Origin: a virus
Taxonomy: Duplodnaviria > Caudoviricetes
Length of the DNA: 64,000 bases
IMG/VR virus record: IMGVR_UViG_3300043803_000642
Location: 606 to 64,605 of that record
Strand: one strand, 5' to 3'
Part shown: piece by piece, positions 8,069-56,922 of the stretch
How the letters are laid out: each line of letters opens with the position of its first letter
Numbering within the stretch: the stretch's first letter is position 1
Position numbers and translations under genes: made by a program
The notes under the pieces: model-generated
Told to the model about the DNA's origin: nothing
Databases searched by the model: none
Seen by the model: only the letters and a program-made list of their open reading frames with translations

Positions 8069-8275
8069 GTGAGTCATGATGAAAAGCTAATGTTGGAGGC
8101 GTTCCGGCTGTTGTATCAGGTGTACCGGGAGCAAAAGGCTGGGCGGAAGTATTACCGGCCGGTGTCGATATATCCGACCTTGGCAAAGATACAGAAGCGG
8201 CTGAACGGGCCTGTGCGGCAAAATGAGTTGTCGATAGTGGCGATGAGAGAGAAGGCGAATAGTCCGTGGACTTGA
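8069..8275 (+). CDS. Hypothetical protein
   Basis: Co-oriented ORF overlapping the terL start. Confidence 0.5.
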   Translation: MSHDEKLMLEAFRLLYQVYREQKAGRKYYRPVSIYPTLAKIQKRLNGPVRQNELSIVAMREKANSPWT

Positions 8276-12219: not shown

Positions 12220-12222
12220 TCC

Positions 12223-12414
12223 ATGGAAAAAGCGCTTGAAGTACTGCTCAAACAGGTGCGTGACAAGCGCGATCAGATAGTGGAGGCCGTCGCCAACAGC
12301 GCGGCCAAAGACTACGCTGACTATCAAAAACTTTGCGGCGAGATCCGAGGTCTATCGCTTGCGGAGGGTTTTATCTTGGACCTTGCAAAGAAAATGGAGT
12401 ATTCCGATGAGTGA
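12223..12414 (+). CDS. Small head-module protein
   Basis: SD AAGGAG; DYADYQKLCGEIRGL. Confidence 0.7.
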   Translation: MEKALEVLLKQVRDKRDQIVEAVANSAAKDYADYQKLCGEIRGLSLAEGFILDLAKKMEYSDE

Positions 12415-12808
12415 AATCTTAATCGCCAGTCAAGATGGCGAGACATCCACGCTGCCAGAAACAGCGGAGGAAAAAGCGAAACAACTGCCAGAGCCTACCG
12501 GGTATCACATCCTGGTCGCGCTGCCGGAAGTTGAAGACAAGTTTGACAGCGGGCTAGTCAAGGCAGACCAAACTCTGTACGAGGAAAAGGTACTGGCGAC
12601 TGTCTTCTTTGTCATCAAGATGGGACCTGATTGTTACAAAGACGAAAAGCGGTTCCCGAATGGAGCATGGTGCAAGGAAGGGGATTTCATTCTCGCCCGT
12701 CCTAACACTGGCACCCGCCTGAAGATTCATGGCCGCGAGTTCCGTTTGATTAACGACGACGTGGTTGAAGCGGTGGTTCAAGACCCACGCGGGATCTCTA
12801 GGGCTTAA
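12407..12808 (+). CDS. groES: GroES-like co-chaperonin
   Basis: LPEPTGYHILV, MGPDCY, CKEGDFI, FRLINDDVVEAVV. Confidence 0.85.
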   Translation: MSEILIASQDGETSTLPETAEEKAKQLPEPTGYHILVALPEVEDKFDSGLVKADQTLYEEKVLATVFFVIKMGPDCYKDEKRFPNGAWCKEGDFILARPNTGTRLKIHGREFRLINDDVVEAVVQDPRGISRA

Positions 12809-12822
12809 CAAAGGAGAAACAC

Positions 12823-13776
12823 ATGGCGCAACAAGACGTGGAAGATTTCAAGTTCCCTGATGAAAAGGAAGACGAGGTCAAAGCCTCGGCTGCCGAGGAG
12901 CTTGAGTATGAGATAGAGGACGATACGCCTCCCGAGGATCGCGGCAAGGAGCCGATGCCCAAGGAGATTGTCCAGGAGCTTGATAACGACGAGCTGGAGG
13001 AATACTCCGACAACGTAAAGCTACGCCTGAAGCAGATGAAGAAGGTGTATCACGACGAGCGTCGGGAGAAAGAAGCGGCGTTGCGTGAGCAACAGGAAGC
13101 TATCGCTTATGCCAAGCGGATTCTTGAGGAGAACAATGCACTCAAGAGCCGGCTGACGCAGGGCGAGCAGGCGTTTGTTGCCACAGCAAAGTCGGCGGCA
13201 GAACTGGAATTACAGGCGGCCAAGAAGGCATATAAGGATGCCTACGACATTGGCGACTCCGATGCCTTGATAGAGGCGCAGGAGAAGTTGAATAACGCGC
13301 AGTACAAATTGCAGCGGGTGTCTGAATATGTTCCGTCTAGACAAGAGCCGGAAACTGATGTACAACCTGTTGCCAATCCAGCACCTCGTCCTGACCAGAG
13401 GGCAATTGCGTGGCAAGAGCGCAATCAATGGTTCGGTAAGGACGAGGAAATGACCAGCTTGGCTCTGGGCTTGCATCAGAAGTTGGTCTCTCAGTACGGG
13501 ACGGCATATCCGTCTACGGACGAATACTGGAAGAAGGTCGACGAGACCATGCGCCGTCGATTCCCAGAGCATTTTGCGGATCAGGAGGAAGCCCCTGCGC
13601 AGGAGCCAAAACCCCAGCGCGAGAAACCTGCTCCGGTTGTTGCACCTGCAACGAGAAGCACGGGATCAAAGAAGATCACGGTCAAGCAGTCCGCAGTCGC
13701 CATGGCAAAAAAACTTGGCGTACCGTTGGAAAGATACGTGCAGGAAATGCAAAAATTGGAGGGTAGAAATGGCTGA
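12823..13776 (+). CDS. Putative capsid scaffolding protein
   Basis: Acidic coiled coil; C-terminal AKKLGVPLERY helix; position before capsid genes. Confidence 0.7.
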   Translation: MAQQDVEDFKFPDEKEDEVKASAAEELEYEIEDDTPPEDRGKEPMPKEIVQELDNDELEEYSDNVKLRLKQMKKVYHDERREKEAALREQQEAIAYAKRILEENNALKSRLTQGEQAFVATAKSAAELELQAAKKAYKDAYDIGDSDALIEAQEKLNNAQYKLQRVSEYVPSRQEPETDVQPVANPAPRPDQRAIAWQERNQWFGKDEEMTSLALGLHQKLVSQYGTAYPSTDEYWKKVDETMRRRFPEHFADQEEAPAQEPKPQREKPAPVVAPATRSTGSKKITVKQSAVAMAKKLGVPLERYVQEMQKLEGRNG

Positions 13777-14215
13777 GAATCGCACACCGCGCAGTACCGA
13801 GAGTCGTAACCAAACGCAGCGTCCCCAGCAGTGGGCGCCGCCGGAGCTTCTGCCAGAACCAGATAAGCAACCGGGTTACAAATACCGTTGGATTCGCGTG
13901 TCGCTTGGAGGACAAGCTGACGCTCGCAACATCTCTATCAAACTACGAGAAGGTTGGGAGCCAGTGAAAGTCGAAGAGCAACCGCAGTATGGACTGCTAG
14001 TCAATGGCGAGGGGCGGTGGAAAGACTGCGTCCAAGTCGGCGACGTGTTGTTGTGCAAGACGCCAGAAGAGCTAACCGTGCAGCGTAACCAACACTACCT
14101 GCAACAATCGGAACAGCAAATCCGGGCGGTGGACAACAACCTGATGAAGCAAAATGACCCACGTATGCCGCTATTCAAGGAGTCGAGTTCCTCGACGACG
14201 CGAGGTGGTGGTTAA
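13769..14215 (+). CDS. Conserved head-module protein
   Basis: PGYKYRWIR...LREGWEPV...VGDVLLCK; start reassigned to ATG 13769. Confidence 0.7.
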   Translation: MAENRTPRSTESRNQTQRPQQWAPPELLPEPDKQPGYKYRWIRVSLGGQADARNISIKLREGWEPVKVEEQPQYGLLVNGEGRWKDCVQVGDVLLCKTPEELTVQRNQHYLQQSEQQIRAVDNNLMKQNDPRMPLFKESSSSTTRGGG

Positions 14216-14232
14216 ACTTATTGGAGTTATCA

Positions 14233-14889
14233 ATGGCATATCCTACTGTATCGAAGCCTTATGGGCTTCAGCCGATCAATTTGATCGGCGGGCAGGTGTA
14301 CGCCGGTTCGACTCGCCTATTCCGTATTGCTAGCGGCTATGCCACCAGCATTTACTACGGCGATGTCGTGAAAATCGCATCGGATGGCACTATCCAAAAG
14401 GATACTGGCACTTCGACTGCGACCCCGGTTGGCATCTTCTTGGGTTGCACTTACACCAACCCATCAACCAACCAGAAGCTGAACTACCAGTACTACGCTG
14501 GTGGCACTAACGCTCCTGACATCCAGGCGTACGTTGTGGACGACCCTGATGTTCTGTTCAAGATGGCTGCTGTTTCGTCCGGTACTACCGTTGCTTTCTA
14601 CAGCTCGGAGCAGATCGGCCTGAACGCTGCCTTGATTCAGAACAACGGCTCGAACACTACAGGTGATTCGCAGGTTGCAATTAATGGCGCTTCGTTTGCC
14701 ACTACTGCATCCTTGCCAATTCGCATTGTCGACATTGTCCCTGACACGTCGAACAGCGCAAACGGCTACTGCGAGTTCATCTGCAAATTCAACGCACCGT
14801 ACATCGTTTCCACGTTCACGAACACATCGAACCTCGTTACTTCTACAGTAACTGGCGGACATGCGTATCTGAACCCGACTGGTGTTTAA
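14233..14889 (+). CDS. Putative capsid decoration/cement protein
   Basis: Beta-rich, PYGLQPI...IYYGDVV...VVDDPDVLF; directly before the capsid gene. Confidence 0.65.
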   Translation: MAYPTVSKPYGLQPINLIGGQVYAGSTRLFRIASGYATSIYYGDVVKIASDGTIQKDTGTSTATPVGIFLGCTYTNPSTNQKLNYQYYAGGTNAPDIQAYVVDDPDVLFKMAAVSSGTTVAFYSSEQIGLNAALIQNNGSNTTGDSQVAINGASFATTASLPIRIVDIVPDTSNSANGYCEFICKFNAPYIVSTFTNTSNLVTSTVTGGHAYLNPTGV

Positions 14890-14899
14890 GGAGTAAGAC

Positions 14900-15808
14900 A
14901 TGGCTATTTCACGCGCACAACTACTGAAAGAGCTACTGCCTGGCCTGAACGCCTTGTTCGGCATGGAGTACGCTCGTTATGGTGAAGAACACAAAGAGAT
15001 CTACGAAACAGAGACCTCCGAGCGTTCTTTCGAAGAAGAAACCAAGCTGTCTGGCTTCAGCGCCGCACCGGTCAAGAACGAAGGTTCTGCGATCCGGTAC
15101 GACAATGGTCAGGAAGCTTGGACTGCACGATACAACCACGAAACCATCGCTCTGGGTTTCTCGCTGACCGAAGAGGCCATCGAAGATAACCTGTATGACA
15201 GCCTGTCGGCTCGTTATACCAAGGCGCTGGCTCGTGCGATGTCGTACACCAAGCAGGTAAAAGCTGCTGCTGTACTGAACAACGGCTTCTCGTCTAACTA
15301 CCCTGGTGGTGATGGCGTGGCTCTGTTCAGCACTGCACACCCGCTGGTATCTGGCGGCACCAACAGCAACACTCCGTCGACCCAAGTTGACCTCTCGGAA
15401 ACCGCGTTGGAAAACGCAGTCATCCAGATCGCTGCTTGGACTGACGAACGTGGCCTGCTGATCGCCGCTCGTCCCCGCAAGCTGATCGTGCCTCCAGCAC
15501 TCCAGTTTGTGGCGACCCGCCTGTTGGAGACCCAACTGCGTCCGGGAACCAATGATAACGACGTGAACGCGATCGTTAACAACGGTTCGATCCCGGAAGG
15601 CTATACGATCAACCACTTCTTGACCGACACGAACGCATGGTTCCTAACCACTGACGTTCCAAACGGCATGAAGCACTTTGTTCGTATCCCGTTGCAGAAC
15701 TCCATGGACGGAGACTTCGACACCGGCAACGTCCGTTACAAAGCGCGTGAGCGTTATTCGTTCGGATGGTCCGATCCTCTGGGTATGTTCGCATCCCAGG
15801 GTGCTTGA
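14900..15808 (+). CDS. Major capsid protein (Mu gpT-like, HK97 fold)
   Basis: ETSERSFEEE, EEAIEDNLY, PRKLIVPPAL, DFDTGNVRYKARERYSFGWSDP; followed by a terminator. Confidence 0.9.
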   Translation: MAISRAQLLKELLPGLNALFGMEYARYGEEHKEIYETETSERSFEEETKLSGFSAAPVKNEGSAIRYDNGQEAWTARYNHETIALGFSLTEEAIEDNLYDSLSARYTKALARAMSYTKQVKAAAVLNNGFSSNYPGGDGVALFSTAHPLVSGGTNSNTPSTQVDLSETALENAVIQIAAWTDERGLLIAARPRKLIVPPALQFVATRLLETQLRPGTNDNDVNAIVNNGSIPEGYTINHFLTDTNAWFLTTDVPNGMKHFVRIPLQNSMDGDFDTGNVRYKARERYSFGWSDPLGMFASQGA

Positions 15809-15811
15809 TAG

Positions 15812-15837
15812 AAGGGGGCTTAAATGCCCCCTTTTTT
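15812..15837 (+). terminator. Rho-independent terminator after the capsid gene
   Basis: AAGGGGGC-ttaaat-GCCCCCTT followed by a T-run. Confidence 0.85.
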
Positions 15838-15865
15838 CATAGATTTATGCTATAACGCAGTAATT

Positions 15866-15939
15866 CCGGGAATACCGGGTGTGGCAAACAGTCCCGGCTG
15901 ACGTCAAGCAGATTGCCATACCGAACTCGCTTGAGAGGA
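15866..15939 (+). ncRNA. Pseudoknotted RNA downstream of the gpT-like capsid gene (probably the Mu-gpT-DE motif)
   Basis: Interleaved helices CCGGGA/TCCCGG, GGTGTGGCAA/TTGCCATACC, TCAAGC/GCTTGA; TGCTATAAC extended -10 upstream. Confidence 0.65.
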
Positions 15940-15946
15940 CAATTCG

Positions 15947-16420
15947 ATGGCTGTATCTACTACCCAAAGCATCTGGCGTTCGGGCGGCGGTGATAACACC
16001 CGCCAAGCTTATTGCGGCACCGGCGTCATGGCAGCAACTTTCTATGTTGCAAACGCGGCTGTTGCCGGCAACGTTGTCGTTGCTTCTGGCACTACCACTC
16101 CCCTGATTCTTCCTGCAAACGCTGTTGTCACGTCTGTGATCATCACGAACGGTCTGACTTCAGGCACGATGAATGTCGGCTACACCACTATTGATGGTGC
16201 AACTTCGAACGCTGCGTTCTACGTTTCGGCGTTGGCTGCTACCTCTGCAAAGACTGTCACCCCAGGCGCGACTGGAGCAGGCGCTGGCATCGGAACAGCA
16301 GGCAGCCCAACCAAGAACTTCACCGTTACAAGTGAAAGCGCAAGCTCGGCTGTTGGCGATGTTGCTGGCTACATTACGTACTACGTAAATGACCCTCTGT
16401 TCGGTCAGCAGAACAACTAA
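15947..16420 (+). CDS. Putative virion structural protein
   Basis: Beta-rich Ala/Thr/Gly composition; SD GAGGA. Confidence 0.65.
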   Translation: MAVSTTQSIWRSGGGDNTRQAYCGTGVMAATFYVANAAVAGNVVVASGTTTPLILPANAVVTSVIITNGLTSGTMNVGYTTIDGATSNAAFYVSALAATSAKTVTPGATGAGAGIGTAGSPTKNFTVTSESASSAVGDVAGYITYYVNDPLFGQQNN

Positions 16421-16432
16421 TAGGGGGCCAGC

Positions 16433-16702
16433 ATGGCTCAACAAACAGACGTAAAAGCGCAGAGTCGCGGATCGTCGGGAGTAATCTTTGAAGGCCGAAC
16501 TCGTGTGAAGGGCATGATCATTGCCCCGACATCGAGCGCTGGTAACGTAACTATCCAAGACGGTGGCACGAACGTGTTCACTGTGCAGACTGTTGCGAAC
16601 GGCGAGGCTTTCAACTGCCTGATTCCTGCGGACGGCATCCTCTTTTACACAAACGTAACAGTGACGTTGGTCAACACTTCTGTGACGGTGTTCTATGGCT
16701 AA
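16433..16702 (+). CDS. Small beta-rich virion protein
   Basis: GRTRVKG...IPADGILF...VTVFYG. Confidence 0.7.
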   Translation: MAQQTDVKAQSRGSSGVIFEGRTRVKGMIIAPTSSAGNVTIQDGGTNVFTVQTVANGEAFNCLIPADGILFYTNVTVTLVNTSVTVFYG

Positions 16703-16949
16703 GACCCCGGCTTGGCAGCGCAAGGAAGGCAAGAACCCTGAAGGCGGTTTGAACGCCAAGGGTCGCGCCTCCTACAACAAAGCCAATCCGGGCAAGCCTG
16801 GCCTGAAAGCACCGCAGCCAGAGGGCGGTTCTCGCAAGAAGTCATTCTGCGCCCGGATGTCCGGGATGAAGAAGAAGCTGACTTCTGCAAAGACCGCCAA
16901 CGATCCAAACAGTCGTATCAATAAATCTTTAAGAAAGTGGAAGTGTTGA
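16695..16949 (+). CDS. DUF6321-like basic protein
   Basis: AWQRKEGKNPEGGLNAKGRASY...SFCARM...SLRKWKC. Confidence 0.7.
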   Translation: MAKTPAWQRKEGKNPEGGLNAKGRASYNKANPGKPGLKAPQPEGGSRKKSFCARMSGMKKKLTSAKTANDPNSRINKSLRKWKC

Positions 16950-16951
16950 CC

Positions 16952-17200
16952 GTGGATATCAATTTGGTCTGGAACGGCGCGCTGTCGCTGTTTGTGGGCT
17001 TGTTTGCGTATGTCGCCCATGAGAAGTTCTCTGAGCTAGCGCGGATCACCATCTTGTTGAACAAGACGCGTGAGGAGATAGCACGGGATAACGTGACAAA
17101 GGCGGAAGTTGACCGCATCACCGATCACATAGATCAGCGATTCAACCGGCTGGAGAACAAGATCGACCAGCTGATTGAGTCACAGAGGAGAGTGTTATGA
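16952..17200 (+). CDS. Small membrane-anchored coiled-coil protein
   Basis: N-terminal hydrophobic helix; RFNRLENKIDQL. Confidence 0.65.
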   Translation: MDINLVWNGALSLFVGLFAYVAHEKFSELARITILLNKTREEIARDNVTKAEVDRITDHIDQRFNRLENKIDQLIESQRRVL

Positions 17201-17916
17201 AGCGCAAGACAAAGCGTTATCAAGACGGCGGCAAGACTGAAGACCAGTACAAGAAAGAAGGTCTTGAGTCATCCAAAGACGAAAAGGTCGGCTTCTTTGA
17301 GCGGCTTCGCATGGGCAATATAGATAACCCAAGCTCAGAAGCATATCGACGTTTTGGTGCCGGACGCGCAAAGATGGCAGAAGAGGCCAGAACGCCTGTG
17401 CCTGAGATGAGTAGCGACTACAGTGGTCGTGGCGCAAAATCCCAAAGTTCTTCTGGAAGTAGTGAGATGATGCCAAGAACCAAAGTCAGCGCTTCTGATA
17501 TTGGATTTACTGGCGGCGGCGAAGATGTAACAAATGAAAGTAGTTACATGCCGCGCAGCACATACAAGATGGAAGATATTGGTGATGCAACAAACGACGA
17601 TATAAAACCAAAACCAAAACCAAAGCCAAAACCTCGTAAGCGTGTAAGTCAATCGTTTGGAGAAACTGACTCTGATGCTTTGAACAAACGTCGTCTAGAA
17701 GGCTTGAAGAAAGAAGACTCTCCATACGGCAAAAGCGAAAGGCTTAAAGCGCTTATGGGAACCTTCTCCCCAGAGCGTTCTTCCAAGCGTTATGCAGAGT
17801 CCACTCCTTATGCACGTTCAAAGATGGGCATGAAGTCTGGCGGCAAGGTTAGTTCTGCATCCTCGCGCGCGGACGGTATCGCCCAGCGTGGCAAGACCAA
17901 GGGAAGGATCTGCTAA
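17197..17916 (+). CDS. Disordered protein with GG motifs and conserved C-terminal tag
   Basis: YQDGG; MKSGGKVSSASSRADGIAQRGKTKGRIC. Confidence 0.75.
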   Translation: MKRKTKRYQDGGKTEDQYKKEGLESSKDEKVGFFERLRMGNIDNPSSEAYRRFGAGRAKMAEEARTPVPEMSSDYSGRGAKSQSSSGSSEMMPRTKVSASDIGFTGGGEDVTNESSYMPRSTYKMEDIGDATNDDIKPKPKPKPKPRKRVSQSFGETDSDALNKRRLEGLKKEDSPYGKSERLKALMGTFSPERSSKRYAESTPYARSKMGMKSGGKVSSASSRADGIAQRGKTKGRIC

Positions 17917-18179
17917 TGGCTGACATGGCAAAAATGCAGATGCGCATTCGTGAGCTTGAGACTCGCCGCGAGAAGGGTGAGTCAGTTCCTGAACTTGATG
18001 CGCTCTACAAAAAGATGGATGCGTTAACCGAAAAAGGCTACGCCGAGGCTACAAAGACTGTGACGGGAGAAACACCGCCTGCGCCAGTGAAGAAAGCAAA
18101 AGGCGGTTCGGTTTCATCTGCTTCTGCCCGTGCTGATGGCTGCGCTATTCGCGGCAAAACCAAAGGAAGAATGGTATGA
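17916..18179 (+). CDS. Small protein with GG motif and conserved C-terminal tag
   Basis: KAKGGSVSSASARADGCAIRGKTKGRMV. Confidence 0.75.
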   Translation: MADMAKMQMRIRELETRREKGESVPELDALYKKMDALTEKGYAEATKTVTGETPPAPVKKAKGGSVSSASARADGCAIRGKTKGRMV

Positions 18180-18766
18180 GAAAGCGCAAAAAGTTTGCAG
18201 ATGGCGGCGTGACGGGTCAGACCCAGCAGCCTACATATCCGTTCTACGGTAATCAGCCTATGGCCGGTGGTCAGAGCGGCGGCATGAATCAGACGTTCAA
18301 CATGCAGCCACAAGCCATGTCTGGTCCTAACGATCAAATGACACAGCGCTTTGCCAAGGGTGGTCAGGCAAAGGTAGGCAAGGTCATGTCTGAGTTCAAG
18401 TCCGGCAAGCTGAAGAGTTCGTCGGGTCAGAAGGTAACGAATCCCAAGCAGGCCATCGCTATCGGGCTGTCCGAAGCTGGTCTTTCCAAGAAAGCTAAAG
18501 GAGGCGAGATGAAAGAGTCCAAAGCAATGGTCAAGAAAGAAGTGTCGTTCATGAAGAAGAAGGGCGCTCCTAAGTCTATGGTCAAGCATGAGATGGCAGA
18601 AGCCGGCATGAAGTACGGCGGCAAGGTCAAGAAGATGGCAAGCGGCGGCCTAGCTACTGGTCACAAGTCGGCTGACGGCGTTGCCACCAAGGGCAAGACC
18701 AAGGCTATGCAGGTCAAGATGGCCAAAGGTGGCATGACCAAGATGCGCAAAGGCGGCTACTGCTAA
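18176..18766 (+). CDS. Basic polyprotein-like protein with a DUF6496-like segment and multiple GG motifs
   Basis: KVGKVMSEFKSGKLKS...PKQAIAIGLSEAG; FADGG, FAKGG, KAKGG, MKYGG, MASGG, MAKGG, MRKGG. Confidence 0.75.
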   Translation: MRKRKKFADGGVTGQTQQPTYPFYGNQPMAGGQSGGMNQTFNMQPQAMSGPNDQMTQRFAKGGQAKVGKVMSEFKSGKLKSSSGQKVTNPKQAIAIGLSEAGLSKKAKGGEMKESKAMVKKEVSFMKKKGAPKSMVKHEMAEAGMKYGGKVKKMASGGLATGHKSADGVATKGKTKAMQVKMAKGGMTKMRKGGYC

Positions 18767-18778
18767 CAGGAGGCTGAC

Positions 18779-19054
18779 ATGATGCCCTCACGCGGGATGG
18801 GAGATATTGCTGCAAGCAAGATGCCCAAGGCTAGAACTAAGCGTCGCCGGGACAACACCGACTTCACGCAGTACAAAGAAGGCGGCAAGGTGAACGCTGC
18901 TGGTAATTACACCAAGCCAGAACTGCGCAAGCGGATCGTGGCGCAAGTAAAAGCAGCGGCTACTCACGGCACTGGCGCAGGTCAATGGTCAGCCCGCAAG
19001 GCACAGCTGGTGGCAAAGAAGTACAAGGCAGCAGGTGGAGGTTATCGTGGCTGA
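18779..19054 (+). CDS. DUF5872-like protein, N-terminal half
   Basis: YTKPELRKRI...GQWSARKAQL...YKAAGGGY. Confidence 0.65.
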   Translation: MMPSRGMGDIAASKMPKARTKRRRDNTDFTQYKEGGKVNAAGNYTKPELRKRIVAQVKAAATHGTGAGQWSARKAQLVAKKYKAAGGGYRG

Positions 19055-19559
19055 TGAAACCACTAGATACAAGTTGTGGGATCGAATTGAGAAAGTGTAT
19101 GTAGGCAACGACTACACAGACAAAAACCGCGCCAGATCTGCCGCAGATAAAAAAGACATGGAATATGGATCTGGTCGATATGCGGTTGATCCAATTAATT
19201 ACAAAGAGGGTGCATGGCGCGGTAGAAACAATCAAGCAACCAACGTTAAAGGTGGTCATGCACTTGCTGAAAGACTTGGTTTAGCATCAACATCGGAAGA
19301 AAAATTTAAGCCTTTAAGCCCGTCAGAAGACCCAGAGTTTCTTAAAAGGATGGGGGAGATAAAGAAACCACAGCCCAGGTCGGGCGGTGGTAGTGGTGGG
19401 GCGGCTTCTGATCGTCGTGAAATGCAACTTGGTGCTGAAATGGACCCAAAAGCTCTGATGAAGCGTGAAGAATACAAGCGTGGTGGCAAAGTTGTTGGTG
19501 CGTCACAACGTGGGGATGGTATTGCGCAGCGGGGTAAAACTCGTGGAAGGATGGTGTGA
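19047..19559 (+). CDS. Cargo-like protein with GG motif and conserved C-terminal tag
   Basis: YKRGGKVVGASQRGDGIAQRGKTRGRMV; GTG start after GGAGG. Confidence 0.75.
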   Translation: MADETTRYKLWDRIEKVYVGNDYTDKNRARSAADKKDMEYGSGRYAVDPINYKEGAWRGRNNQATNVKGGHALAERLGLASTSEEKFKPLSPSEDPEFLKRMGEIKKPQPRSGGGSGGAASDRREMQLGAEMDPKALMKREEYKRGGKVVGASQRGDGIAQRGKTRGRMV

Positions 19560-19560
19560 G

Positions 19561-19836
19561 ATGGCTAGCAAGTTTCCAGATCTGACCGGCGACGGCAAGG
19601 TAACGCAAGCAGACGTCCTGAAGGGTCGTGGCGTAGAGGGTATGAAGAAGGGCGGCTCCACAAAAAAGTGGATTCAGAGCGCAATCAAGAAGCCGGGCGC
19701 CCTGCGCGCTCAACTTGGCGCAAAAGAAGGCAAGCCGATTTCCCCTAAGAAGCTAGCCTCTGCTGCCAAAAAACCAGGGAAATTGGGCCAAAGAGCAAGA
19801 CTTGCCCAAACTCTGAAGAAAATGGGCAAGAAGTGA
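19561..19836 (+). CDS. Basic protein with an EF-hand-like DLTGDGKVTQAD loop and MKKGG
   Basis: Start reassigned to ATG 19561; WIQSAIKKPGAL...RARLAQTLKK. Confidence 0.7.
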   Translation: MASKFPDLTGDGKVTQADVLKGRGVEGMKKGGSTKKWIQSAIKKPGALRAQLGAKEGKPISPKKLASAAKKPGKLGQRARLAQTLKKMGKK

Positions 19837-20066
19837 AAGCACCGCAGCAGAGCCTGAAAGATTGGGGCGAGCAGAAATGGCGCACCAAAAGCGGCAAACC
19901 ATCGTCGAAGACAGGCGAGCGGTACTTGCCGGAGAAGGCTATCAAAGCGTTGTCTCCAGCGGAGTATGCGGCGACGACGCGAGCAAAGCGGGCAGGAAAG
20001 AAAGCGGGCAAGCAGTTCGTGAAACAACCCAAGGGCATAGCTCAGAAGACGGCGAGATTTAGGTAA
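19833..20066 (+). CDS. DUF5872-like protein, C-terminal half
   Basis: QQSLKDWGEQKWRTKSG...ERYLPEKAIKALS. Confidence 0.65.
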   Translation: MKAPQQSLKDWGEQKWRTKSGKPSSKTGERYLPEKAIKALSPAEYAATTRAKRAGKKAGKQFVKQPKGIAQKTARFR

Positions 20067-20806
20067 TGGCCTACACGACTTCTACGACCTCGTTTAATCC
20101 GACGGTCAACGACATCTTCGAAGAAGCCTTTGAGAGAGTCGGGCTGGAGATGCGCACGGGCTACGATTTTCGTACCGCCCGGCGCAGTCTGAACTTGCTG
20201 CTGACGGAGTGGGCAAATCGCGGCATCAACTTGTGGACTATCGAGCAGGGAACGATCCCGCTCGTACAGGGACAGATTACCTATGATCTACCTAATGACA
20301 CCGTGGATCTTCTGGAACATGTTATTCGAACCAATCCTGGGCAGATCGGGACTCAGTCAGACATTAACATCAACCGAATCTCTGTTTCCACCTACGCCAC
20401 AATCCCGAACAAGCTCACGCAAGGGCGCCCGATCCAAGTCTGGATAAACCGTCGCAGCGGCCAGACCAGTGATGCGCCCGGCGCTACGCCGCAGTATCCA
20501 CAGATCAACGTGTGGCCAAGCCCAGATCAAGGTACGGCACAGACACCGTACTACTACTTCGTGTACTGGCGGTTGCGTAGGATGGTGGATGTAGGCAACG
20601 GTGTAAACGTAGAAGATATCCCATTCCGCTTTCAGGAGTGCCTGATCTGCGGGTTGGCATATCGTCTAGCCATGAAGTTGCCGGGCGGTCTGGAGCGGTT
20701 GCAGTTCTTGAAGGCGCAGTACGACGAAGCGTGGGAGATGGCAGCGGGCGAAGATCGTGAGAAGGCACCTGATCGGCTGGTGCCACGCATGATCACGTAC
20801 AGGTGA
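20066..20806 (+). CDS. Putative head-tail adaptor/connector
   Basis: ARRSLNLLLTEWANRG, GRPIQVWI, VWPSPD, GLAYRLA. Confidence 0.65.
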   Translation: MAYTTSTTSFNPTVNDIFEEAFERVGLEMRTGYDFRTARRSLNLLLTEWANRGINLWTIEQGTIPLVQGQITYDLPNDTVDLLEHVIRTNPGQIGTQSDININRISVSTYATIPNKLTQGRPIQVWINRRSGQTSDAPGATPQYPQINVWPSPDQGTAQTPYYYFVYWRLRRMVDVGNGVNVEDIPFRFQECLICGLAYRLAMKLPGGLERLQFLKAQYDEAWEMAAGEDREKAPDRLVPRMITYR

Positions 20807-20809
20807 TGT

Positions 20810-21232
20810 ATGCCAAGTAAGTACGCTAGTGGCAAGAACAGTATTTCCGAGTGTGACCGGTGCGGTTTCCGGTACATGCTCAAAGAGTTGAAGACACTGA
20901 CGATCAAGACGAAGAACGTCAACATCAAGGTGTGCAGAACTTGCTGGGAACCTGACCAGCCGCAGTTGAGTCTGGGCTTGTACCCGGTGAATGACCCGCA
21001 GGCTGTGCGGGATCCGAGACCGGACAAGTCGTACTGGCAGTCGGGTTTGACTGGATTGCAGACGCAGTACAACTCTGGTACAGGTGAGTTACAGGATGGG
21101 TTTCCTGCTGGTGGTAGCCGGATCATTCAGTGGGGCTGGTCGCCGATTGGTGGCTCAAGAGCGAATGATGCTGGGCTAACGCCCAACAACTTGGTGGCAC
21201 AGACTACGGTCGCAAACGTGACCATTAACTAG
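20810..21232 (+). CDS. Zn-finger-containing morphogenesis protein
   Basis: CDRCGF...VCRTCWEPDQPQL...DPQAVRDPRPD. Confidence 0.7.
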   Translation: MPSKYASGKNSISECDRCGFRYMLKELKTLTIKTKNVNIKVCRTCWEPDQPQLSLGLYPVNDPQAVRDPRPDKSYWQSGLTGLQTQYNSGTGELQDGFPAGGSRIIQWGWSPIGGSRANDAGLTPNNLVAQTTVANVTIN

Positions 21233-21241
21233 GAGTGAGAG

Positions 21242-21391
21242 ATGGACAAGATGAAGCAGGTAGCCAAAGCCGAGGTGAAAGCGCATGAGAAGCGTATGCA
21301 CAAAGGCATGAAAAAGGGTGGCGTGACCACGTCCGATCTGAAAAAATACGGGCGGAACGAAGCTCGCATTCAGAACCAGAAAACCAAGTGA
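21242..21391 (+). CDS. 49-aa basic protein with MKKGG, absent from ORF track
   Basis: SD AGGAG; MDKMKQVAKAEVKAHEKRMHKGMKKGGVTT... Confidence 0.7.
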   Translation: MDKMKQVAKAEVKAHEKRMHKGMKKGGVTTSDLKKYGRNEARIQNQKTK

Positions 21392-21398
21392 GGTTGAG

Positions 21399-21620
21399 AT
21401 GGCTATCAAGAACATGGGTACGCCCAAGCCTGTAAAGGGTAATGGCAAGAAGTTGCCTGACCCGAACAACATCGCGGTAGACAAGCTGGGGCCGAAGACG
21501 GCTGTGCAGCGCGTGTCTGCTGGCGATCCTGGCCGCGAGGACACCAAGACTACCGGCATCAAGATCCGTGGCACTGGTGCGGCTACCAAGGGCGTGATGG
21601 CTAGAGGTCCGATGGCATGA
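21399..21620 (+). CDS. Small basic protein ending RGTGAATKGVMARGPMA
   Basis: SD GAGG; C-terminus loosely resembles the GxAxRG tag. Confidence 0.7.
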   Translation: MAIKNMGTPKPVKGNGKKLPDPNNIAVDKLGPKTAVQRVSAGDPGREDTKTTGIKIRGTGAATKGVMARGPMA

Positions 21621-22300
21621 CGTACACCGAGTTAGTCACGGCGATACAGGACTACACGGAGAACTACGAACAGACGTTCGTAGATAACATCCCGCTGTTT
21701 GTCCGTCAGACGGAGACCCGCATCTACAATGCGGTGCAGCTGCCGCCTATTCGCCGCAACTCGACAGGTACGCTGCTGACCGGTAACAAGTATCTGACCG
21801 CGCCGACAGACTTCTTGGCGGTGTACTCCATGGCTGTGATCGAGAACTACGGCACGGCAAACGAGGAGTATCACTACCTGCTGAACAAGGATGTGAACTA
21901 CATCCGTGCTGCGTATCCCACGCCGGCAGACACAGGGTTGCCGCAGTACTACGCGATCTTCGGCCCACAGGTAACGAGCAACACCACGACGGACGAACTG
22001 AGCTTTATCTTTGGCCCTACGCCGGATGATGCCTACACACTGGAGCTGCACTACTACTATTACCCAGAGTCGATTACGACAGCGCCAGATGGCCGTACGT
22101 GGCTGGGTGACAACTACGATCCGGCTCTGCTGTATGGCTCTTTGCGCGAGGCGTACTTGTTCATGAAGGGCGAGCAGGATTTGATTGCCAACGTCGAGGC
22201 CAAGTACAACGAGGCTATGGGTGAACTGAAGCGTCTGGGCGATGGCATGGAGCGTCAGGATGCGTACCGCAGCGGTCAGGTTAGGGTGAAAGTGACATGA
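21617..22300 (+). CDS. Putative tail tubular/adaptor protein
   Basis: MTYTELVTAIQDY, GLPQYYA, GPTPD, LLYGSLREA. Confidence 0.7.
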   Translation: MTYTELVTAIQDYTENYEQTFVDNIPLFVRQTETRIYNAVQLPPIRRNSTGTLLTGNKYLTAPTDFLAVYSMAVIENYGTANEEYHYLLNKDVNYIRAAYPTPADTGLPQYYAIFGPQVTSNTTTDELSFIFGPTPDDAYTLELHYYYYPESITTAPDGRTWLGDNYDPALLYGSLREAYLFMKGEQDLIANVEAKYNEAMGELKRLGDGMERQDAYRSGQVRVKVT

Positions 22301-22722
22301 CGATTTACCAAGGCCTGACCACATCGTTCAAGGTGGACATACTGAACGGGCGACAGAATATAGCGTCGGACTCTTTGAAGATGGCGCTGTATGACGGGTA
22401 TGTAGAGTTAGGTGAAAGCACGACCGCATATTCCACAACGAACGAGATTAGTGGTGCGGGCTACACGGCTGGTGGCGAGGGCTTGTCAAACGTCTCGATT
22501 GAGTCTACAAGCAACGGTATTGTGTATGTAAGTTTTGCCAATGTGGTTTGGACGAACGCTGAGTTCATCGCCAGAGGTGCGTTGATTTACAACGCTACTC
22601 GGGCGAATGCGTCGGTAGCCACGTTGGACTTTGGGAGCGACAAGACGCAGGCTGCGAATGGCACATTTACTGTGACGCTGCCACCAAATACGCCGTCCAG
22701 TGCGTTAATACGTATCAACTGA
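22297..22722 (+). CDS. Virion structural protein
   Basis: SFKVDIL...LKMALY...NEISGAGYTAGG...LDFGSDK. Confidence 0.7.
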   Translation: MTIYQGLTTSFKVDILNGRQNIASDSLKMALYDGYVELGESTTAYSTTNEISGAGYTAGGEGLSNVSIESTSNGIVYVSFANVVWTNAEFIARGALIYNATRANASVATLDFGSDKTQAANGTFTVTLPPNTPSSALIRIN

Positions 22723-22731
22723 GGAGTCATC

Positions 22732-23307
22732 ATGACGATTGAAAAATCAAAATCCAGCGAGACTGTCAGCGGCGGTGTAGAGCGCAAGACAGGTTTTGCT
22801 GAAGGTGCGTCTGGCGGCGGTGTGTTCACCGTTACTTGCTACGACAAAGACGGCAAAGAGAAGTGGGTAGACATGGGTCACAACCTGGTGGTGAACACCG
22901 GCTTGCAGGACATGAACACCAAGTACTTCAAGGGTTCGACCTACACGGCTGCTTGGTACATCGGGCTGATCAACAACACGTCGAGCAGCACCACGTTCTC
23001 CGGTGGAGACACGTTGGCATCTCACGCTGGCTGGGATGAGAACTCCAGCTACAGCGGCACTCGCCCGCAGGTGACGTTTGGTAACGCCACACTGGCAGAT
23101 CCGTCGAACATCAACAACTCGGCGTCTTTGGCTACGTTCACAATGACAGCGAATGCCACGATCTCTGGCGCGTTCTTGTGCAACGTGGCGTCTGGTACAT
23201 CTGGTCTGCTGTTCTCGGCGGCCGATTTCCAAGCGCCTGGCGATCGTACTGTTGTCAGCGGTGATGTTCTGAACGTGACGTACTCGTTCAACCTAGATGC
23301 AACTTGA
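22732..23307 (+). CDS. Virion structural protein
   Basis: HNLVVNTG, WYIGL, GDVLNVTY; beta-rich. Confidence 0.7.
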   Translation: MTIEKSKSSETVSGGVERKTGFAEGASGGGVFTVTCYDKDGKEKWVDMGHNLVVNTGLQDMNTKYFKGSTYTAAWYIGLINNTSSSTTFSGGDTLASHAGWDENSSYSGTRPQVTFGNATLADPSNINNSASLATFTMTANATISGAFLCNVASGTSGLLFSAADFQAPGDRTVVSGDVLNVTYSFNLDAT

Positions 23308-23319
23308 TAGGGGGTAGTC

Positions 23320-23493
23320 ATGTTTAAGAAGGGCGACGTAGTCAAGCTGAAGGCGGTGATTCCGCAGGGTCCAATCGTGAAGATGCGTATGGACGATGAC
23401 GGCAATATCTGGTGCCTGATGGAGTGGACGTCTGAAGATGGTCAGGCGCACAGTCGATGGTTTATGGATAGTGAGCTTGAGGCTGCGGAGTAA
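23320..23493 (+). CDS. 57-aa SH3-like (YodC-like) protein, absent from ORF track
   Basis: MFKKGDVVKLK...GP...W...F..SELE. Confidence 0.65.
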   Translation: MFKKGDVVKLKAVIPQGPIVKMRMDDDGNIWCLMEWTSEDGQAHSRWFMDSELEAAE

Positions 23494-23496
23494 TGC

Positions 23497-24459
23497 GTGG
23501 ATGGCGGCTTTGGTAGCGGCACATGGGGGCAGGCTGGCTGGGGCTGTTCAGTATATGACCGGCTGATATCGAACGGCGGTTGGGGTAACGGTGCTTGGGG
23601 GTCAGATGGCTGGGGTCTTGGTGATGGTGGGCTGGTCAAAGGCGCTGATACAGTCAGTGCAGAGATACAGCCCAAGATCGTTGCAAACATCGCCGAGTCT
23701 GCTGTTGTTACTGACTTCTACTTTGCTAGCCTCAATGTCACCGGCGCTGTTGCCGAGTCTGCTGCTGCTGCCGATACTGTTGCTAGCGCTCTGTCTGTCA
23801 CAGGCGCAGTTTCTGAGACGGTCACGGGCAGCGATACAGTCAGCTCGCTGGCGTCGGTAGGTGCGCAGGTAACAGAAACCGCGCAGACGGCAGATGTAGT
23901 CAGCAGTCTGGCAAACATGAACTCTCAGGTATCTGAGAGTGCGACAGGAAGTGATGCAGTAACACCGAGGAACAACAGGTTTGGTACTGTCAGTGAGTCG
24001 GTAGCAGGAAATGAAACGGTAGCGTCGCAGGTGTCGTTCACGAGTGTGGCGGCGGAGACGGTAGCGGCGCAGGATCAGGTAGTAGGCAGGTTTGGTATTT
24101 CAGGTGCGATTGCGGAGAGCGCAAATGCGACAGACATACTGGAAGTGTTCAACAGCATCGCCTTCGCTATCAGCGAGGATGCCAGCGCTTCTATCACGGT
24201 GTCTGCGCAGGCCAACTTTGCTGCAAGCGTGTCTGATGCTGTGGTTACGTCAGACAGTGATAGTGCGAGTGCAAGCTTCATCGCAAGGATTCTGGAATCG
24301 GTTGTGGCAGAAGATGTTGCCCGCCGCAGATTCTTGTGGGAGCCTATTGAAACAGGCGGTAATGTTACATGGTCGGCCATCAACACCGGCGGTGCTGGTA
24401 CATGGACACCAATAGTCACGGGCAACGCGGCGACCTGGACGGTCATCAATACAGTTTAA
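23497..24459 (+). CDS. Repetitive virion fibre/stalk protein
   Basis: N-terminal WG repeats; about 19-aa (V/I)xE(S/T)xxxxD repeats. Confidence 0.7.
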   Translation: MDGGFGSGTWGQAGWGCSVYDRLISNGGWGNGAWGSDGWGLGDGGLVKGADTVSAEIQPKIVANIAESAVVTDFYFASLNVTGAVAESAAAADTVASALSVTGAVSETVTGSDTVSSLASVGAQVTETAQTADVVSSLANMNSQVSESATGSDAVTPRNNRFGTVSESVAGNETVASQVSFTSVAAETVAAQDQVVGRFGISGAIAESANATDILEVFNSIAFAISEDASASITVSAQANFAASVSDAVVTSDSDSASASFIARILESVVAEDVARRRFLWEPIETGGNVTWSAINTGGAGTWTPIVTGNAATWTVINTV

Positions 24460-30412: not shown

Positions 30413-30906
30413 TGTTGCCATTACTTGCACCGATCTTGACGCAGCTCGCGGGCGCAGGGCTACAGAAGGTGGCCGACTCTGTGCTTGAGCAGGGCTTGGA
30501 TCATGTCGAGGAGAAGCTCGGCATCAAGCTGGAGCCTAACGAGAACGGTGTGCTGGATGACACCAAGCTGGCAGAGATTCAGATGGCAGCCATGAAACAT
30601 GCAGAGTTCATGGCAGAACTGGATTTGAAGAACACGCAGGACGCGCGGGAGATGCAGGAAAAAGCCATGGAGAATGCTGATCCTTTGGTACGCAGGTTTG
30701 TGTACCTGTTTGCTGGGTTCTGGTCATTGTTTGCCACGGGCTATATCGTCTTGATTACCGTTGCAGAGATCCCGGAAAAGAACATCCGGTTTGTAGATGT
30801 GGTTCTTGGTTTTATCCTTGGTACGGTGGTAGCTACCATCCTGAACTTCTTCTTTGGTTCTAGCCAGAGCAGCAAGGACAAGACCAAGGAGTTGCTGAAA
30901 AAATGA
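30412..30906 (+). CDS. Putative holin (GTA 3TM-like)
   Basis: DAREMQ, two TM helices, FFFGSSQSSKDK. Confidence 0.7.
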   Translation: MLPLLAPILTQLAGAGLQKVADSVLEQGLDHVEEKLGIKLEPNENGVLDDTKLAEIQMAAMKHAEFMAELDLKNTQDAREMQEKAMENADPLVRRFVYLFAGFWSLFATGYIVLITVAEIPEKNIRFVDVVLGFILGTVVATILNFFFGSSQSSKDKTKELLKK

Positions 30907-48222: not shown

Positions 48223-48230
48223 GTTCTCCC

Positions 48231-52006: not shown

Positions 52007-52015
52007 CTAGTTCTC

Positions 52016-56913: not shown

Positions 56914-56922
56914 TGCTTCCTC

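Follow-up and report, generated by a model that had tools for sequence, protein, structure and literature searches.

A short C-terminal tag on interchangeable basic proteins in the head gene module of a podophage lineage: a candidate docking motif

Within a 64,000-nucleotide stretch of a tailed phage genome (the window; positions 606 to 64,605 of IMG/VR record IMGVR_UViG_3300043803_000642), three genes lying between the major capsid gene and a head-tail adaptor gene end in one shared tag of about 28 residues, which recurs in sequence databases behind many different upstream parts at the same locus of one podophage lineage. The tag is strongly constrained but shows no fold of its own, a combination that motifs folding upon a partner typically show. 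We therefore tentatively interpret it as a short linear docking motif without a fold of its own, carried by basic, disordered proteins that turn over between relatives, and propose that it serves capsid loading, a reading to which we give slightly less than an even chance.

Tag copies and neighbouring genes in the phage genome

As the original prediction had it, tagged proteins 1, 2 and 3 (Table 1) end in a nearly identical peptide, and the translations of the three genes agree with this. A fourth copy, described there as internal to the 18176–18766 protein, is present as well but is better called near-terminal, i.e. it stops 17 residues before the end; proteins that, like this one, continue past the tag with a short M-x-K-GG-x-C extension form a common class. 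Searched with a profile built from all four copies, the whole 64,605-bp record yielded only these four (E 1.4e-21 to 1.2e-13), and the loose core pattern DG-[ICVLM]-[AS]-x-[RK]-G-[KR]-T had four occurrences in the six-frame translation, whereas 200 shuffles gave a mean of 0.0.

Synonymous differences between the tags had been taken to place their conservation at the protein level; indeed, 11–13 of 17–19 identical residues are encoded by different codons, and the three terminal tags share 61–68 % protein identity versus 51–62 % DNA identity. The absence of similarity between the N-terminal parts was likewise confirmed, the best pair in a permissive all-against-all BLASTP of the four upstream parts reaching E 0.004 at 20 % identity, and the four fell into four separate clusters when upstream parts were clustered. 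This best alignment, between the 18176 and 17197 proteins, begins at residues 2–3 of each, where both, by eye, show a basic M-[KR]n-[FY]-x-D-GG start. That two of the genes are more AT-rich holds modestly (GC content of 0.49 for the 17197 gene and 0.48 for the 19047 gene versus 0.52–0.57 for the other cassette genes).

The capsid gene forms the upstream and the adaptor gene the downstream boundary of the cassette, and the tagged genes between them share the strand of the adjacent genes and are closely packed, with frequent overlaps. Of the 11 small proteins tabulated from 16695–20066 and 21242–21620, ten have a pI of 9.7–10.9, a net charge of +6 to +29 and 12–18 % hydrophobic residues. The conserved first cassette gene, found in 67 of 81 loci, encodes a DUF6321 protein (71.9 bits versus a PF19846 gathering cut-off of 28.5), a domain that is C-terminal in 103 of 120 longer relatives (83–98 % identical). 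The following 87-aa protein has a hydrophobic fraction of 0.38 and a homologue in 48/81 loci, and its N-terminal segment is, judged by eye, a candidate membrane helix. For tagged protein 2, AlphaFold2 (71-row alignment) predicted helices at residues 2–19 and 26–49 with pLDDT 84–96, and 52–60 in the tag region. The 18176–18766 protein passes the gathering cut-off of PF20106 (DUF6496; 38.5 bits versus 24) and contains five [FYM]-x-x-GG motifs by pattern and a sixth, MKYGG, by eye; its homologues in the loci occur both with and without the tag. The phrog_17747 gene was found in 72 of the 81 loci. Tagged protein 3 starts at the GTG at 19047, matching its homologues, with an earlier GTG in frame at 19035; its AlphaFold2 model (30-row alignment) reaches pLDDT 82–86 over residues 6–51 and 42–60 over the remainder, with a best Z of 4.8 in a fold search. 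The extended-tag block of this protein is conserved on at least eight upstream parts, which look unrelated when their alignment is judged by eye. Downstream of the adaptor gene, the gene at the position of 21242..21391 begins with the tag core in some relatives (e.g. L017, L036, L052, L076 and L081).

Table 1. Features of the cassette and its borders (positions in the window)
Feature	Position	Strand	Basis and remarks
Major capsid protein, 302 aa	14900..15808	+	PHROG major head protein; Pfam Phage_capsid_4, 57.8 bits versus cut-off 27
DUF6321 small basic protein, 84 aa, pI 10.8, last residue Cys	16695..16949	+	Pfam PF19846
87-aa protein	16937..17200	+	Translation; hydrophobic N-terminal segment, then helical region with many charged residues
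Tagged protein 1, 239 aa, pI 9.8	17197..17916	+	Basic N-terminal M-[KR]n-Y-x-D-GG, low-complexity middle, C-terminal tag
Tag copy 1, 28 aa	17830..17913	+	Core position Ile, last residue Cys
Tagged protein 2, 87 aa	17916..18179	+	Predicted helical hairpin, then tag
Tag copy 2	18093..18176	+	Core position Cys, last residue Val
Basic 196-aa protein, pI 10.3, net +29	18176..18766	+	DUF6496 domain at residues 58–101
Near-terminal tag copy and M-x-K-GG-x-C extension ending in Cys	18629..18766	+	Profile E 1.2e-13
Untagged conserved small basic protein, 91 aa	18779..19054	+	phrog_17747, E 3.5e-23; contains YKEGG
Tagged protein 3, 170 aa, GTG start	19047..19559	+	Small predicted beta-beta-alpha-beta domain, disordered linker, extended tag
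Extended tag of protein 3, ~58 aa	19383..19556	+	Gly-rich linker, REMQLG..DPK block, 28-aa tag; core position Ile, last residue Val
Untagged small basic protein, start ATG 19561	19561..19836	+	phrog_20603; contains MKKGG
Untagged small basic protein, 77 aa	19833..20066	+	phrog_14910, E 1.4e-37; in 50/81 loci
Head-tail adaptor	20066..20806	+	Pfam SU10_adaptor, 32.9 bits versus cut-off 27; in 74/81 loci
Basic 49-aa protein with MKKGG	21242..21391	+	Translation

Tag family, locus and cassette turnover

A profile of the tag, the check that the original prediction had named, matched 6687 representative proteins at E ≤ 0.001 (518 at E ≤ 1e-10), and at least 7037 proteins at E ≤ 0.001 were matched in one tag search; as predicted, the upstream parts vary while tag and locus stay fixed. 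The tag is without a match in Pfam, NCBIfam and PDB, and its region was hit by none of the PHROG profiles; the PDB sequence search gave a single chance-level match (E 5.2) for the tag profile and none for the 18779 protein as query. Thirteen tag columns are invariant among 71 proteins, the non-basic ones including Val, Ala, Ser, Asp, Gly, Ala and Thr, and the GG before the terminal tag is found in all 71. The tag terminates in a Lys/Arg/Gly cluster and ends no more than three residues from the C-terminus in 257 of 265 fetched database proteins and, within the loci, in 162 of the 218 ORFs that carry it, with Cys, Val, Ile or Leu as its last residue in 414/471. The core motif also occurs off the free end, i.e. 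in tandem (P0001, P0003) or 7–26 residues from the end, and a class of 61–68-aa proteins carries it at the N-terminus. Over the tag, AlphaFold2 gave pLDDT values of 52–60 and 42–58 in two proteins, whose upstream domains reach 82–96.

All informative tag loci belong to one podophage lineage, with capsid proteins 72–99 % identical (79.9–99.7 % among 37 viral loci). In all of the best 80 viral loci the genes follow the order portal, scaffold-like, capsid, DUF6321, tagged genes, phrog_17747 and adaptor, and in the window the locus is flanked by terminase, portal and two adaptor genes. Lineage markers accompany the tag in 111 of 113 tag-bearing loci of a pattern-based sample, and across the genomes of 185,579 species the tag was found only on 15 MAG or uncultured-bin contigs, 12 of which carry the markers of this lineage. 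Among more distant relatives, the cultured Planktothrix phage Pag-Yong1 has one divergent tag copy (E 0.005), and phage DSL-LC04 has, by eye, a similar basic cassette with no canonical tag.

The view that the tag is a modular label, with the locus fixed and the parts ahead of it exchangeable, is thus supported by its terminal position, by the 80 best loci and by the clustering of upstream parts, those of 459 tagged proteins falling into 202 clusters and a smaller set of 202 into 83. Cassettes contain zero to four tagged genes and span 1447–7515 bp (44 loci); 31 of the 44 complete cassettes have at least two tagged genes and 11 have a single one. The closest relative (L006; capsid gene DNA identity of 94 %) is without 18891–20063, and so without the gene for tagged protein 3, and compared with tagged protein 1 its middle part (17232–17655) is replaced with both ends retained. 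Such turnover amid nearly identical capsids marks a likely site of phage–host conflict. The upstream parts are small, basic, mostly of low complexity and predicted to be disordered, and no enzyme domain was found among 10 tagged relatives scanned; the term cargo, as originally proposed, is therefore generous. Two tagged relatives (P0002 and P0005) have an N-terminal module with which PHROG families annotated as 'virion structural protein' also begin.

A new finding concerns cysteine, which is located either at the core position of the tag or as its last residue, the two occurring together in just 3 of 477 tags (odds ratio 0.02, p 2e-28). This exclusivity, a sharp constraint on structure, holds with each upstream cluster counted once per class (3 versus 96 and 54, p 1.5e-12); no cysteine is present in 171 of the 477 tags.

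Docking, capsid loading and alternative roles

Capsid loading is the best reading of the tag because of the gene position, the disorder of the tag and the analogy with T4. Docking and loading are favoured by the conserved position of the locus, the constraint at the chain end and the links to virion proteins, and the turnover of the upstream parts is typical of accessory injected proteins, the capsid proteins by contrast being 80–99 % identical. The mechanism that we infer has four steps: the late structural genes would be expressed together; the tag would bind a conserved component of the procapsid interior, e.g. the scaffold-like protein, the inner face of the capsid or the portal; the tagged proteins would hence be retained in the head with the DNA; and they would exit with it at infection or help to neutralise it. 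A virion proteome or structure of any tag-bearing phage was not found in the literature. The tandem, near-terminal and N-terminal occurrences of the core motif and the presence of at most a divergent tag in more distant relatives speak against this reading. Moreover, the likeliest packaged effector of this phage, a 2066-aa polyvalent protein (40550–46750), carries no tag, so that the tag is not a general packaging signal, and since the upstream parts are mostly disordered and of low complexity and without an enzyme domain, the tagged proteins might act whole, e.g. on DNA, and not as carried cargo.

A more specific version is possible but distinctly doubtful: the tag would be a C-terminal, encapsulin-like address peptide, mirroring the N-terminal signal of T4, that loads and injects interchangeable disordered basic proteins held by a single-disulfide tether. 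If true, the rule of one cysteine would amount to one disulfide per protein, holding it at a fixed site of the particle, and the cassette would serve as a plug-and-play slot filled by host-interference proteins.

Alternatively, the tag could be a nucleic-acid-binding hook, with the cassette supplying DNA-coating or charge-neutralising proteins that reside in the head or act on phage or host DNA. The strongly basic composition of ten of the 11 small proteins, with few hydrophobic residues, and the Lys/Arg/Gly cluster at the tag end are consistent with this, tandem tags would make sense with a polyvalent ligand, as DNA is, and restriction to a single lineage is no argument against a universal ligand. 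A parallel is described for cyanopodophage A4, in which the first DNA circle has basic residues of ejection proteins inserted into its grooves (PMC12002296). Regardless, we consider such a hook unlikely, considering that the invariant tag positions include non-basic residues, that simple electrostatic DNA binding does not need the preference for a hydrophobic residue or Cys at the end, and that no known DNA-binding family was matched in Pfam and PDB sequence searches. In addition, DNA-bound proteins cannot pass the portal during packaging, and entry into the head would therefore still need a protein contact.

Somewhat less probable still is that the tagged proteins are late-made effectors in the infected cell, not virion components, with the tag read by a host machine, e.g. 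an unfoldase or protease. Their C-termini, basic and then hydrophobic or Cys at a free carboxyl end, resemble the MuA-type C-terminal ClpX signal; the quick gain and loss of upstream parts is consistent with host conflict, and Gly-rich hydrophobic segments seen by eye in some long tagged proteins could enter membranes. However, in every locus the genes lie within the module for head and connector and not with early or lysis genes, and 28–58 conserved residues are far above known degrons. In the 185,579 species' genomes, the tag is confined to the 15 MAG or uncultured-bin contigs, and with lineage markers on 12 of these it lacks the broader use that might be seen for a host-machine signal.

We regard it as improbable that the tag serves assembly through homotypic or heterotypic contacts, i.e. 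that tags pair, perhaps by a single disulfide, and thereby join unlike proteins into an internal body or plug. Several tagged proteins per genome, as in the cassettes with two or more, would suit such pairing, the exclusivity of the cysteines would be expected if one thiol per tag were used and two would short-circuit, and a precedent is described in phage A4, where an intermolecular disulfide links two ejection proteins (PMC12002296). However, a disulfide cannot be essential because more than a third of the tags (171/477) are without cysteine, a single tagged gene is all that 11 of the 44 cassettes contain, and AlphaFold2 shows no defined tag structure.

Clipping at the GG, another part of the original prediction, was not supported, since no protease gene was recognised and the motif also stands away from tag boundaries. 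Neither a prohead nor a cysteine protease was recognised by Pfam in 58 ORFs covering most of the genome or by PHROG in the head module, the only peptidase in the Pfam scans being an M15 cell-wall peptidase domain, though a host protease or one that these profiles miss might act. Hydrophobic-x-x-GG is also found at the N-terminus of both the 17197 and the 18176 protein, within cassette proteins that carry no tag, in the stretch joining tandem tags and next to DUF6321 in fusions. Adenovirus core precursors are cut by the viral protease at Gly-Gly sites; comparable processing here, in which a cut after GG would release into the head short N-terminal peptides as well as a free basic peptide some 23 residues long, is very improbable, for while [FYM]-x-[KRDES]-GG is enriched in the cassette (11 in 1246 residues versus 7 in 15,829 residues of 47 other ORFs, Fisher p 6e-9) and marks module junctions (before terminal tags, between tandem tags, after basic N-termini and on both sides of DUF6321), the M15 cell-wall peptidase domain is the only protease recognised, the junction motif may equally be a flexible linker or a piece of a binding motif, and one protein class begins directly with the tag core with no GG ahead.

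Comparison with known systems and significance

The closest analogue is the targeting sequence of the T4 internal proteins, a signal of about ten residues that is removed by the prohead protease. As with the tagged proteins, the internal proteins (IPI, IPII, IPIII and Alt) share only a conserved peptide, the rest varying while peptide and locus stay fixed. In contrast to the N-terminal, cleaved T4 signal, the tag is C-terminal, comprises 28–58 residues and comes with no recognised protease gene, and there is no sequence likeness between the two. The T4 proteins are described as diverse, quickly exchanged small proteins with one short conserved terminal peptide in common, the capsid targeting sequence, which sends them into the scaffolding core (PMC3012670). 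They are known virion components, whereas the tagged proteins are candidates.

Encapsulins, with a shell of the HK97 fold, load cargo by a short, disordered, Gly-containing C-terminal peptide, and thus share with the tag both the position of a short peptide on unrelated proteins and the HK97-fold shell system. However, encapsulins are not tailed viruses, and their cargo consists of folded enzymes, whereas the upstream parts here are mostly disordered and basic, in a tailed phage with portal, terminase and adaptor genes; again, no sequence likeness was seen. Podophage ejection proteins (T7 gp14–16, P22 gp7/16/20 and A4 gp26–29) are packed in the head, as is proposed for the tagged proteins, and encoded with late structural genes, but are large, mostly helical, folded, arranged in a symmetric stack and without a shared tag. 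For those of A4, Lys/Arg contacts to DNA and a disulfide link are described (PMC12002296).

Thousands of metagenome proteins bear the tag, and all are labelled hypothetical. If it is a packaging or tethering signal, it would provide an annotation for a whole class of proteins inside the virions of a widespread, uncultured lineage of phages, represent a second, independent cargo-loading solution in HK97-fold phage heads, C-terminal and perhaps uncleaved, and offer a handle for putting foreign proteins into such capsids. Should DNA instead be its ligand, the cassette would be the phage equivalent of viral core proteins.

DUF6321 and DUF6496 share the cassette with the tag and are equally basic, the former being C-terminal and ending in Cys and the latter occurring with and without the tag; they differ from it as domains modelled in Pfam. 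In one database protein (P0333), DUF6321 is fused directly to an adaptor homologue.

A conserved terminal peptide on unrelated upstream parts

According to the original prediction, three genes of this genome end in nearly the same peptide and a fourth carries an internal copy; the peptides quoted there agree exactly with the translations. The peptide (the tag) has about 28 residues, and the fourth copy proves to be near-terminal. A tag profile finds these four matches only in the whole genome (E 1e-21 to 1e-13), and a loose core pattern occurs 4 times versus a mean of 0.0 in 200 shuffles. The proposed conservation at the protein level is confirmed, i.e. identity among the terminal copies is 61-68 % for the protein and only 51-62 % for the DNA, with different codons at 11-13 of their 17-19 identical residues. 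These synonymous differences imply that selection acts on the peptide, and they rule out both a conserved RNA or DNA element and recent gene conversion among the copies. The four upstream parts, i.e. the portions N-terminal to the tag, are unrelated, as had been supposed, apart from one basic motif, M-[KR]n-[FY]-x-D-GG, at the N-terminus of the proteins starting at 17197 and 18176. Two genes are indeed richer in AT, if modestly so (GC 0.48-0.49 versus 0.52-0.57 in their neighbours). In the 170-aa protein the tag is extended to about 58 residues, a form kept on at least eight upstream parts unrelated by eye.

The original prediction further held that the tag is a modular label whose upstream parts vary while the locus stays fixed. 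The search proposed with it was run, and clusters, gene order and gene turnover all favour this view. In a first set of loci together with the window (81 sources), 218 tagged ORFs were found, with the tag no more than three residues from the stop in 162; most of the others have a 7-26-residue M-x-K-GG-x-C extension after the tag, while a small class of 61-68 aa, encoded 3' of the adaptor gene, has the tag core at the N-terminus. Single-linkage BLASTP sorted the 202 upstream parts of at least 30 residues into 83 clusters, and the 459 of all sets pooled into 202 clusters. Among the 81 loci of the first set, only 4, 4 and 0, respectively, have homologues of the three upstream parts of the window.

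The four-copy profile, searched against 1.84 billion representative proteins, matched 6687 of them at E <= 0.001, including 518 at E <= 1e-10; the top 150 have lengths of 30-258 residues. A word-indexed search of 5.8 billion proteins gave at least 7037 at E <= 0.001 among the 8000 candidates scored, and none of the 120 tag proteins among its matches listed had a Pfam domain or a name past 'hypothetical protein'. In 257 of 265 database proteins the tag ends no more than three residues before the C-terminus.

The tag is undescribed in the sources consulted: it has no entry in Pfam or NCBIfam (the latter returning only Lys-Pro repeat noise against TonB), PHROG gave no profile match over its region in the proteins scanned, the PDB sequence search with the tag profile gave a single chance-level match (E 5.2), and six tag strings of 9-10 letters do not occur in the literature searched. 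PDB sequence searches with the capsid, adaptor and 18779 proteins gave no matches. No literature was found on Pag-Yong1 or DUF6321 by those names, nor a virion proteome of the tag-bearing lineage under related phage names. When the tag alone, the 87-aa protein and a double-tag protein were compared by tblastn with 50,697 phage records, tag matches were absent, and the 170-aa protein gave only weak ones (E >= 0.02) over its first 50 residues, to Pseudomonas and Achromobacter phages. Real copies were probably hidden from tblastn by the low-complexity filter and the short query, since a divergent copy in Pag-Yong1, on a 308-aa protein encoded at 51312-52238 of OL906435, is visible by eye and to the profile (E 0.005).

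One phage lineage and one locus

A scan of viral contigs gave at least 510 confirmed tag places among the 599 candidates listed. The best 80 viral loci share one gene order, i.e. portal, Cpn10-like, scaffold-like, two unknowns, capsid, (two small genes), DUF6321, (small hydrophobic protein), tagged genes, phrog_17747, (tagged genes), phrog_14910 and adaptor. A second, less biased sample of 118 further loci was drawn with a degenerate DNA pattern; 113 of them have a tag at profile level, and lineage markers are missing in only two of these, both fragments of 1.0-1.2 kb. Among prokaryote genomes, taken as one per species for 185,579 species, only 15 contigs carry the tag, all from MAGs or uncultured bins attributed to many phyla. 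Twelve have the same phage-lineage markers and are therefore probably binned phage contigs, while the other three comprise two short fragments and a contig that may be chimeric; an origin of the tag as a host-derived motif is ruled out by these counts. The agreement of the three samples, together with capsid proteins 72-99.7 % identical to that of the window, indicates that the tag is a trait of one phage lineage, well represented in the collections sampled.

On one MAG contig (L095:6261-8102), an ORF for a 613-aa membrane protein ends in a perfect tag 167 bases from the contig end. The surrounding DNA is high-GC, looks actinobacterial and lacks phage genes; the tag probably marks a chimeric junction in the assembly.

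The source virus record (64,605 bp, of which the window covers bases 606-64605) is that of a tailed phage and is rated 100 % complete. Likeness to cultured phages at the DNA level is confined to the capsid gene, with about 70 % identity to Planktothrix phage Pag-Yong1 and near-identical records; the capsid gene of the metagenome-assembled Phage DSL-LC04, whose record uses the wording 'Pam1 adaptor protein', is 66 % identical.

Features of the window, with positions on the stretch
Feature	Position	Remarks
Large terminase	8266-9741	start of late-gene order
Portal	9751-12219	next after large terminase
Weak Cpn10-like gene		between portal and scaffold-like gene
Scaffold-like protein	12823-13776	317 aa, acidic coiled coil; then two genes of unknown function
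Major capsid protein	14900-15808	after the two genes of unknown function
DUF6321 gene	16695-16949	untagged
Tagged gene (protein 1)	17197-17916	terminal tag
Tagged gene	17916-18179	87 aa, terminal tag
Tagged gene	18176-18766	near-terminal tag
Tagged gene (protein 3)	19047-19559	170 aa, terminal tag
phrog_14910 gene	19833-20066	untagged
SU10-type adaptor paralogue	20066-20806	
Zinc-ribbon-like gene		140 aa, between adaptor paralogues
Two tiny basic genes	21242-21391, 21399-21620	between adaptor paralogues
SU10-type adaptor paralogue	21617-22300	tail genes next
Gly_rich_2 proteins	25584-27233, 27245-28915	adjacent, about 550 aa each
M15 cell-wall enzyme domain	30903-31364	
Polyvalent protein	40550-46750 (+)	2066 aa; ART-PolyVal (residues 1008-1146), LPD38 (1762-1928)
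Glycan gene cluster	47320-57687 (-)	about 10 kb

The tagged genes belong to a variable cassette between the capsid and adaptor genes. In the 44 loci holding both, this interval measures 1447-7515 bp and contains 0, 1, 2, 3 or 4 tagged genes in 2, 11, 10, 15 and 6 loci, respectively. Turnover is seen even in the closest relative (L006; capsid gene 94 % identical as DNA), in which the middle part of protein 1 differs (17232-17655) and 18891-20063, i.e. protein 3 and the next two small genes, is missing. DUF6496 occurs in tagged and untagged versions in many loci, and in L045, a further locus, the tag is found on DUF6321.

As DNA, the untagged DUF6321 gene is 70-77 % identical over 150-240 bases to the T4-like Synechococcus phages ACG-2014f and S-BM3, and the phrog_14910 gene shares about 70 % identity with Pelagibacter phage HTVC033P and Roseobacter phage CRP-13; such small untagged modules appear to move between unrelated phages. 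In a 389-aa metagenomic protein (P0333), DUF6321 (residues 1-84) is in frame with a head-tail adaptor homologue, which reflects either a natural fusion or a stop codon lost in assembly. The more distant DSL-LC04 has a similar cassette of small basic genes (L220:10000-12300), encoding DUF6321, a small protein of hydrophobic character, and proteins rich in Met, Lys and Gly that contain hydrophobic-x-x-GG motifs. Since no canonical tag is visible there by eye, the cassette seems older than the tag.

Elsewhere in the genome, the scaffold-like protein is very acidic over its first 60 residues and has a short helix-turn-helix-like stretch at its C-terminal end, by eye like the 'AKKVGIP' / 'SLRDFLNKERGL' small modules of several tagged relatives. 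Promoter and terminator sites in 12000-23500 were no more numerous than in shuffled sequence. The Gly_rich_2 domain is N-terminal in one of the two adjacent proteins and C-terminal in the other, and these are probably tail fibre or spike paralogues. The glycan cluster, unusually large for a 65-kb phage, encodes GDP-mannose 4,6-dehydratase, two epimerases/dehydratases, a DegT-type aminotransferase, a thiamine-pyrophosphate enzyme, family 2 glycosyltransferases and a family 10 (fucosyltransferase-like) enzyme.

Tagged proteins and candidate functions

AlphaFold2 with alignment modelled residues 2-49 of the 87-aa protein confidently as a helical hairpin and residues 6-51 of the 170-aa protein as a small beta-beta-alpha-beta domain; the remainder of both models, tags included, has a pLDDT of 42-60. 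For the latter protein, a fold search against 48,161 chains gave no match at Z >= 5 (best Z 4.8), and the ESM Atlas returned viral 'hypothetical' clusters only (scores 0.86-0.87). Judged by eye, the longest tagged relatives (250-381 aa) are of low complexity, and some contain a hydrophobic segment rich in Gly; none of ten relatives scanned has an enzyme domain. The idea of swappable cargo must therefore be given up as far as folded enzymes are concerned.

We tentatively favour a role as a linear docking motif, at somewhat less than even confidence: the tag would hold the tagged proteins in the procapsid and hence in the head. This reading is based on the gene position within the head and connector module, the tag's strong conservation although it lacks a fold of its own, the fact that the chain end matters, an N-terminal module of tagged relatives that recurs in PHROG families annotated as virion structural proteins, and one DUF6321-adaptor fusion. 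Against it counts that the core motif also works as tandem copies, close to the chain end and in an N-terminal position. A complex prediction with the capsid protein (35-row alignment) and the tag (residues 53-87, 71-row alignment) scored 0.00 in two runs against a mark of 0.32, an outcome that carries no weight either way as to binding.

In its logic, the tag comes nearest to the T4 capsid targeting sequence among known systems. Assignment to the T4 family fails because that signal is N-terminal, whereas the tag is C-terminal; the T4 signal is also removed by a protease. Encapsulin cargo-loading peptides are C-terminal and act with an HK97-fold shell, features in common with the tag, but their biology differs. 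Any kinship in kind to such loading signals holds only if the packaging reading is true, but the motif and its spread hold good under any mechanism, as do the cassette and the cysteine rule.

Ten of the 11 small proteins tabulated (16695-20066, 21242-21620) have a pI of 9.7-10.9 and a net charge of +6 to +29, with only 12-18 % hydrophobic residues in these basic proteins. That the tag is instead a DNA-binding hook is unlikely. Also counted against docking is the polyvalent protein, of a class for which PMC5512222 predicts virion packing and injection: the tag-profile search of the whole record found no copy in it. A host-directed motif, with the tagged proteins outside the virion, appears more doubtful still.

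Cysteine and GG constraints

Of 471 non-redundant tagged proteins, 202 end in Cys, 164 in Val, 28 in Ile and 20 in Leu. Among 477 canonical-end tags, Cys occupies the core position (the residue after Asp-Gly) in 155 and the last position in 154, and both in only three (odds ratio 0.02, p 2e-28). Counting each upstream cluster once per class gives 96 and 54 for the single-Cys classes, 79 for neither and 3 for both (p 1.5e-12), so that the exclusivity holds across the 202 upstream-part clusters (database proteins P0001-P0265, loci L006-L218). The window's own copies span all three common classes, and DUF6321 likewise has a C-terminal Cys. This constraint on the tag is new here. One thiol at either position, almost never two, suggests that these positions, twelve residues apart, are near each other when the tag is in its functional state and that a second Cys is harmful. 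Assembly of tags with one another through a single disulfide is improbable.

Clipping at the GG, as the original prediction had it, is possible but unsupported, given the many sites of the motif and the lack of a recognised protease: Pfam recognised no prohead or cysteine protease in 58 ORFs across the genome, the M15 domain being the sole peptidase match, and PHROG scans recognised none in the head module. Least credible of all is GG processing that frees a basic peptide. Within the cassette, [FYM]-x-[KRDES]-GG has twenty times the density found elsewhere (11 in 1246 residues versus 7 in 15,829; p 6e-9). It precedes every terminal tag, with GG invariant in 71 of 71 aligned proteins. It also follows the basic N-terminal stretch in two tagged proteins, occurs within untagged cassette proteins and between tandem tags, and flanks DUF6321 on either side in fusion proteins. 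Judged by these sequence settings, hydrophobic-x-x-GG is best regarded as a cassette-wide junction or binding motif rather than a tag-specific boundary.
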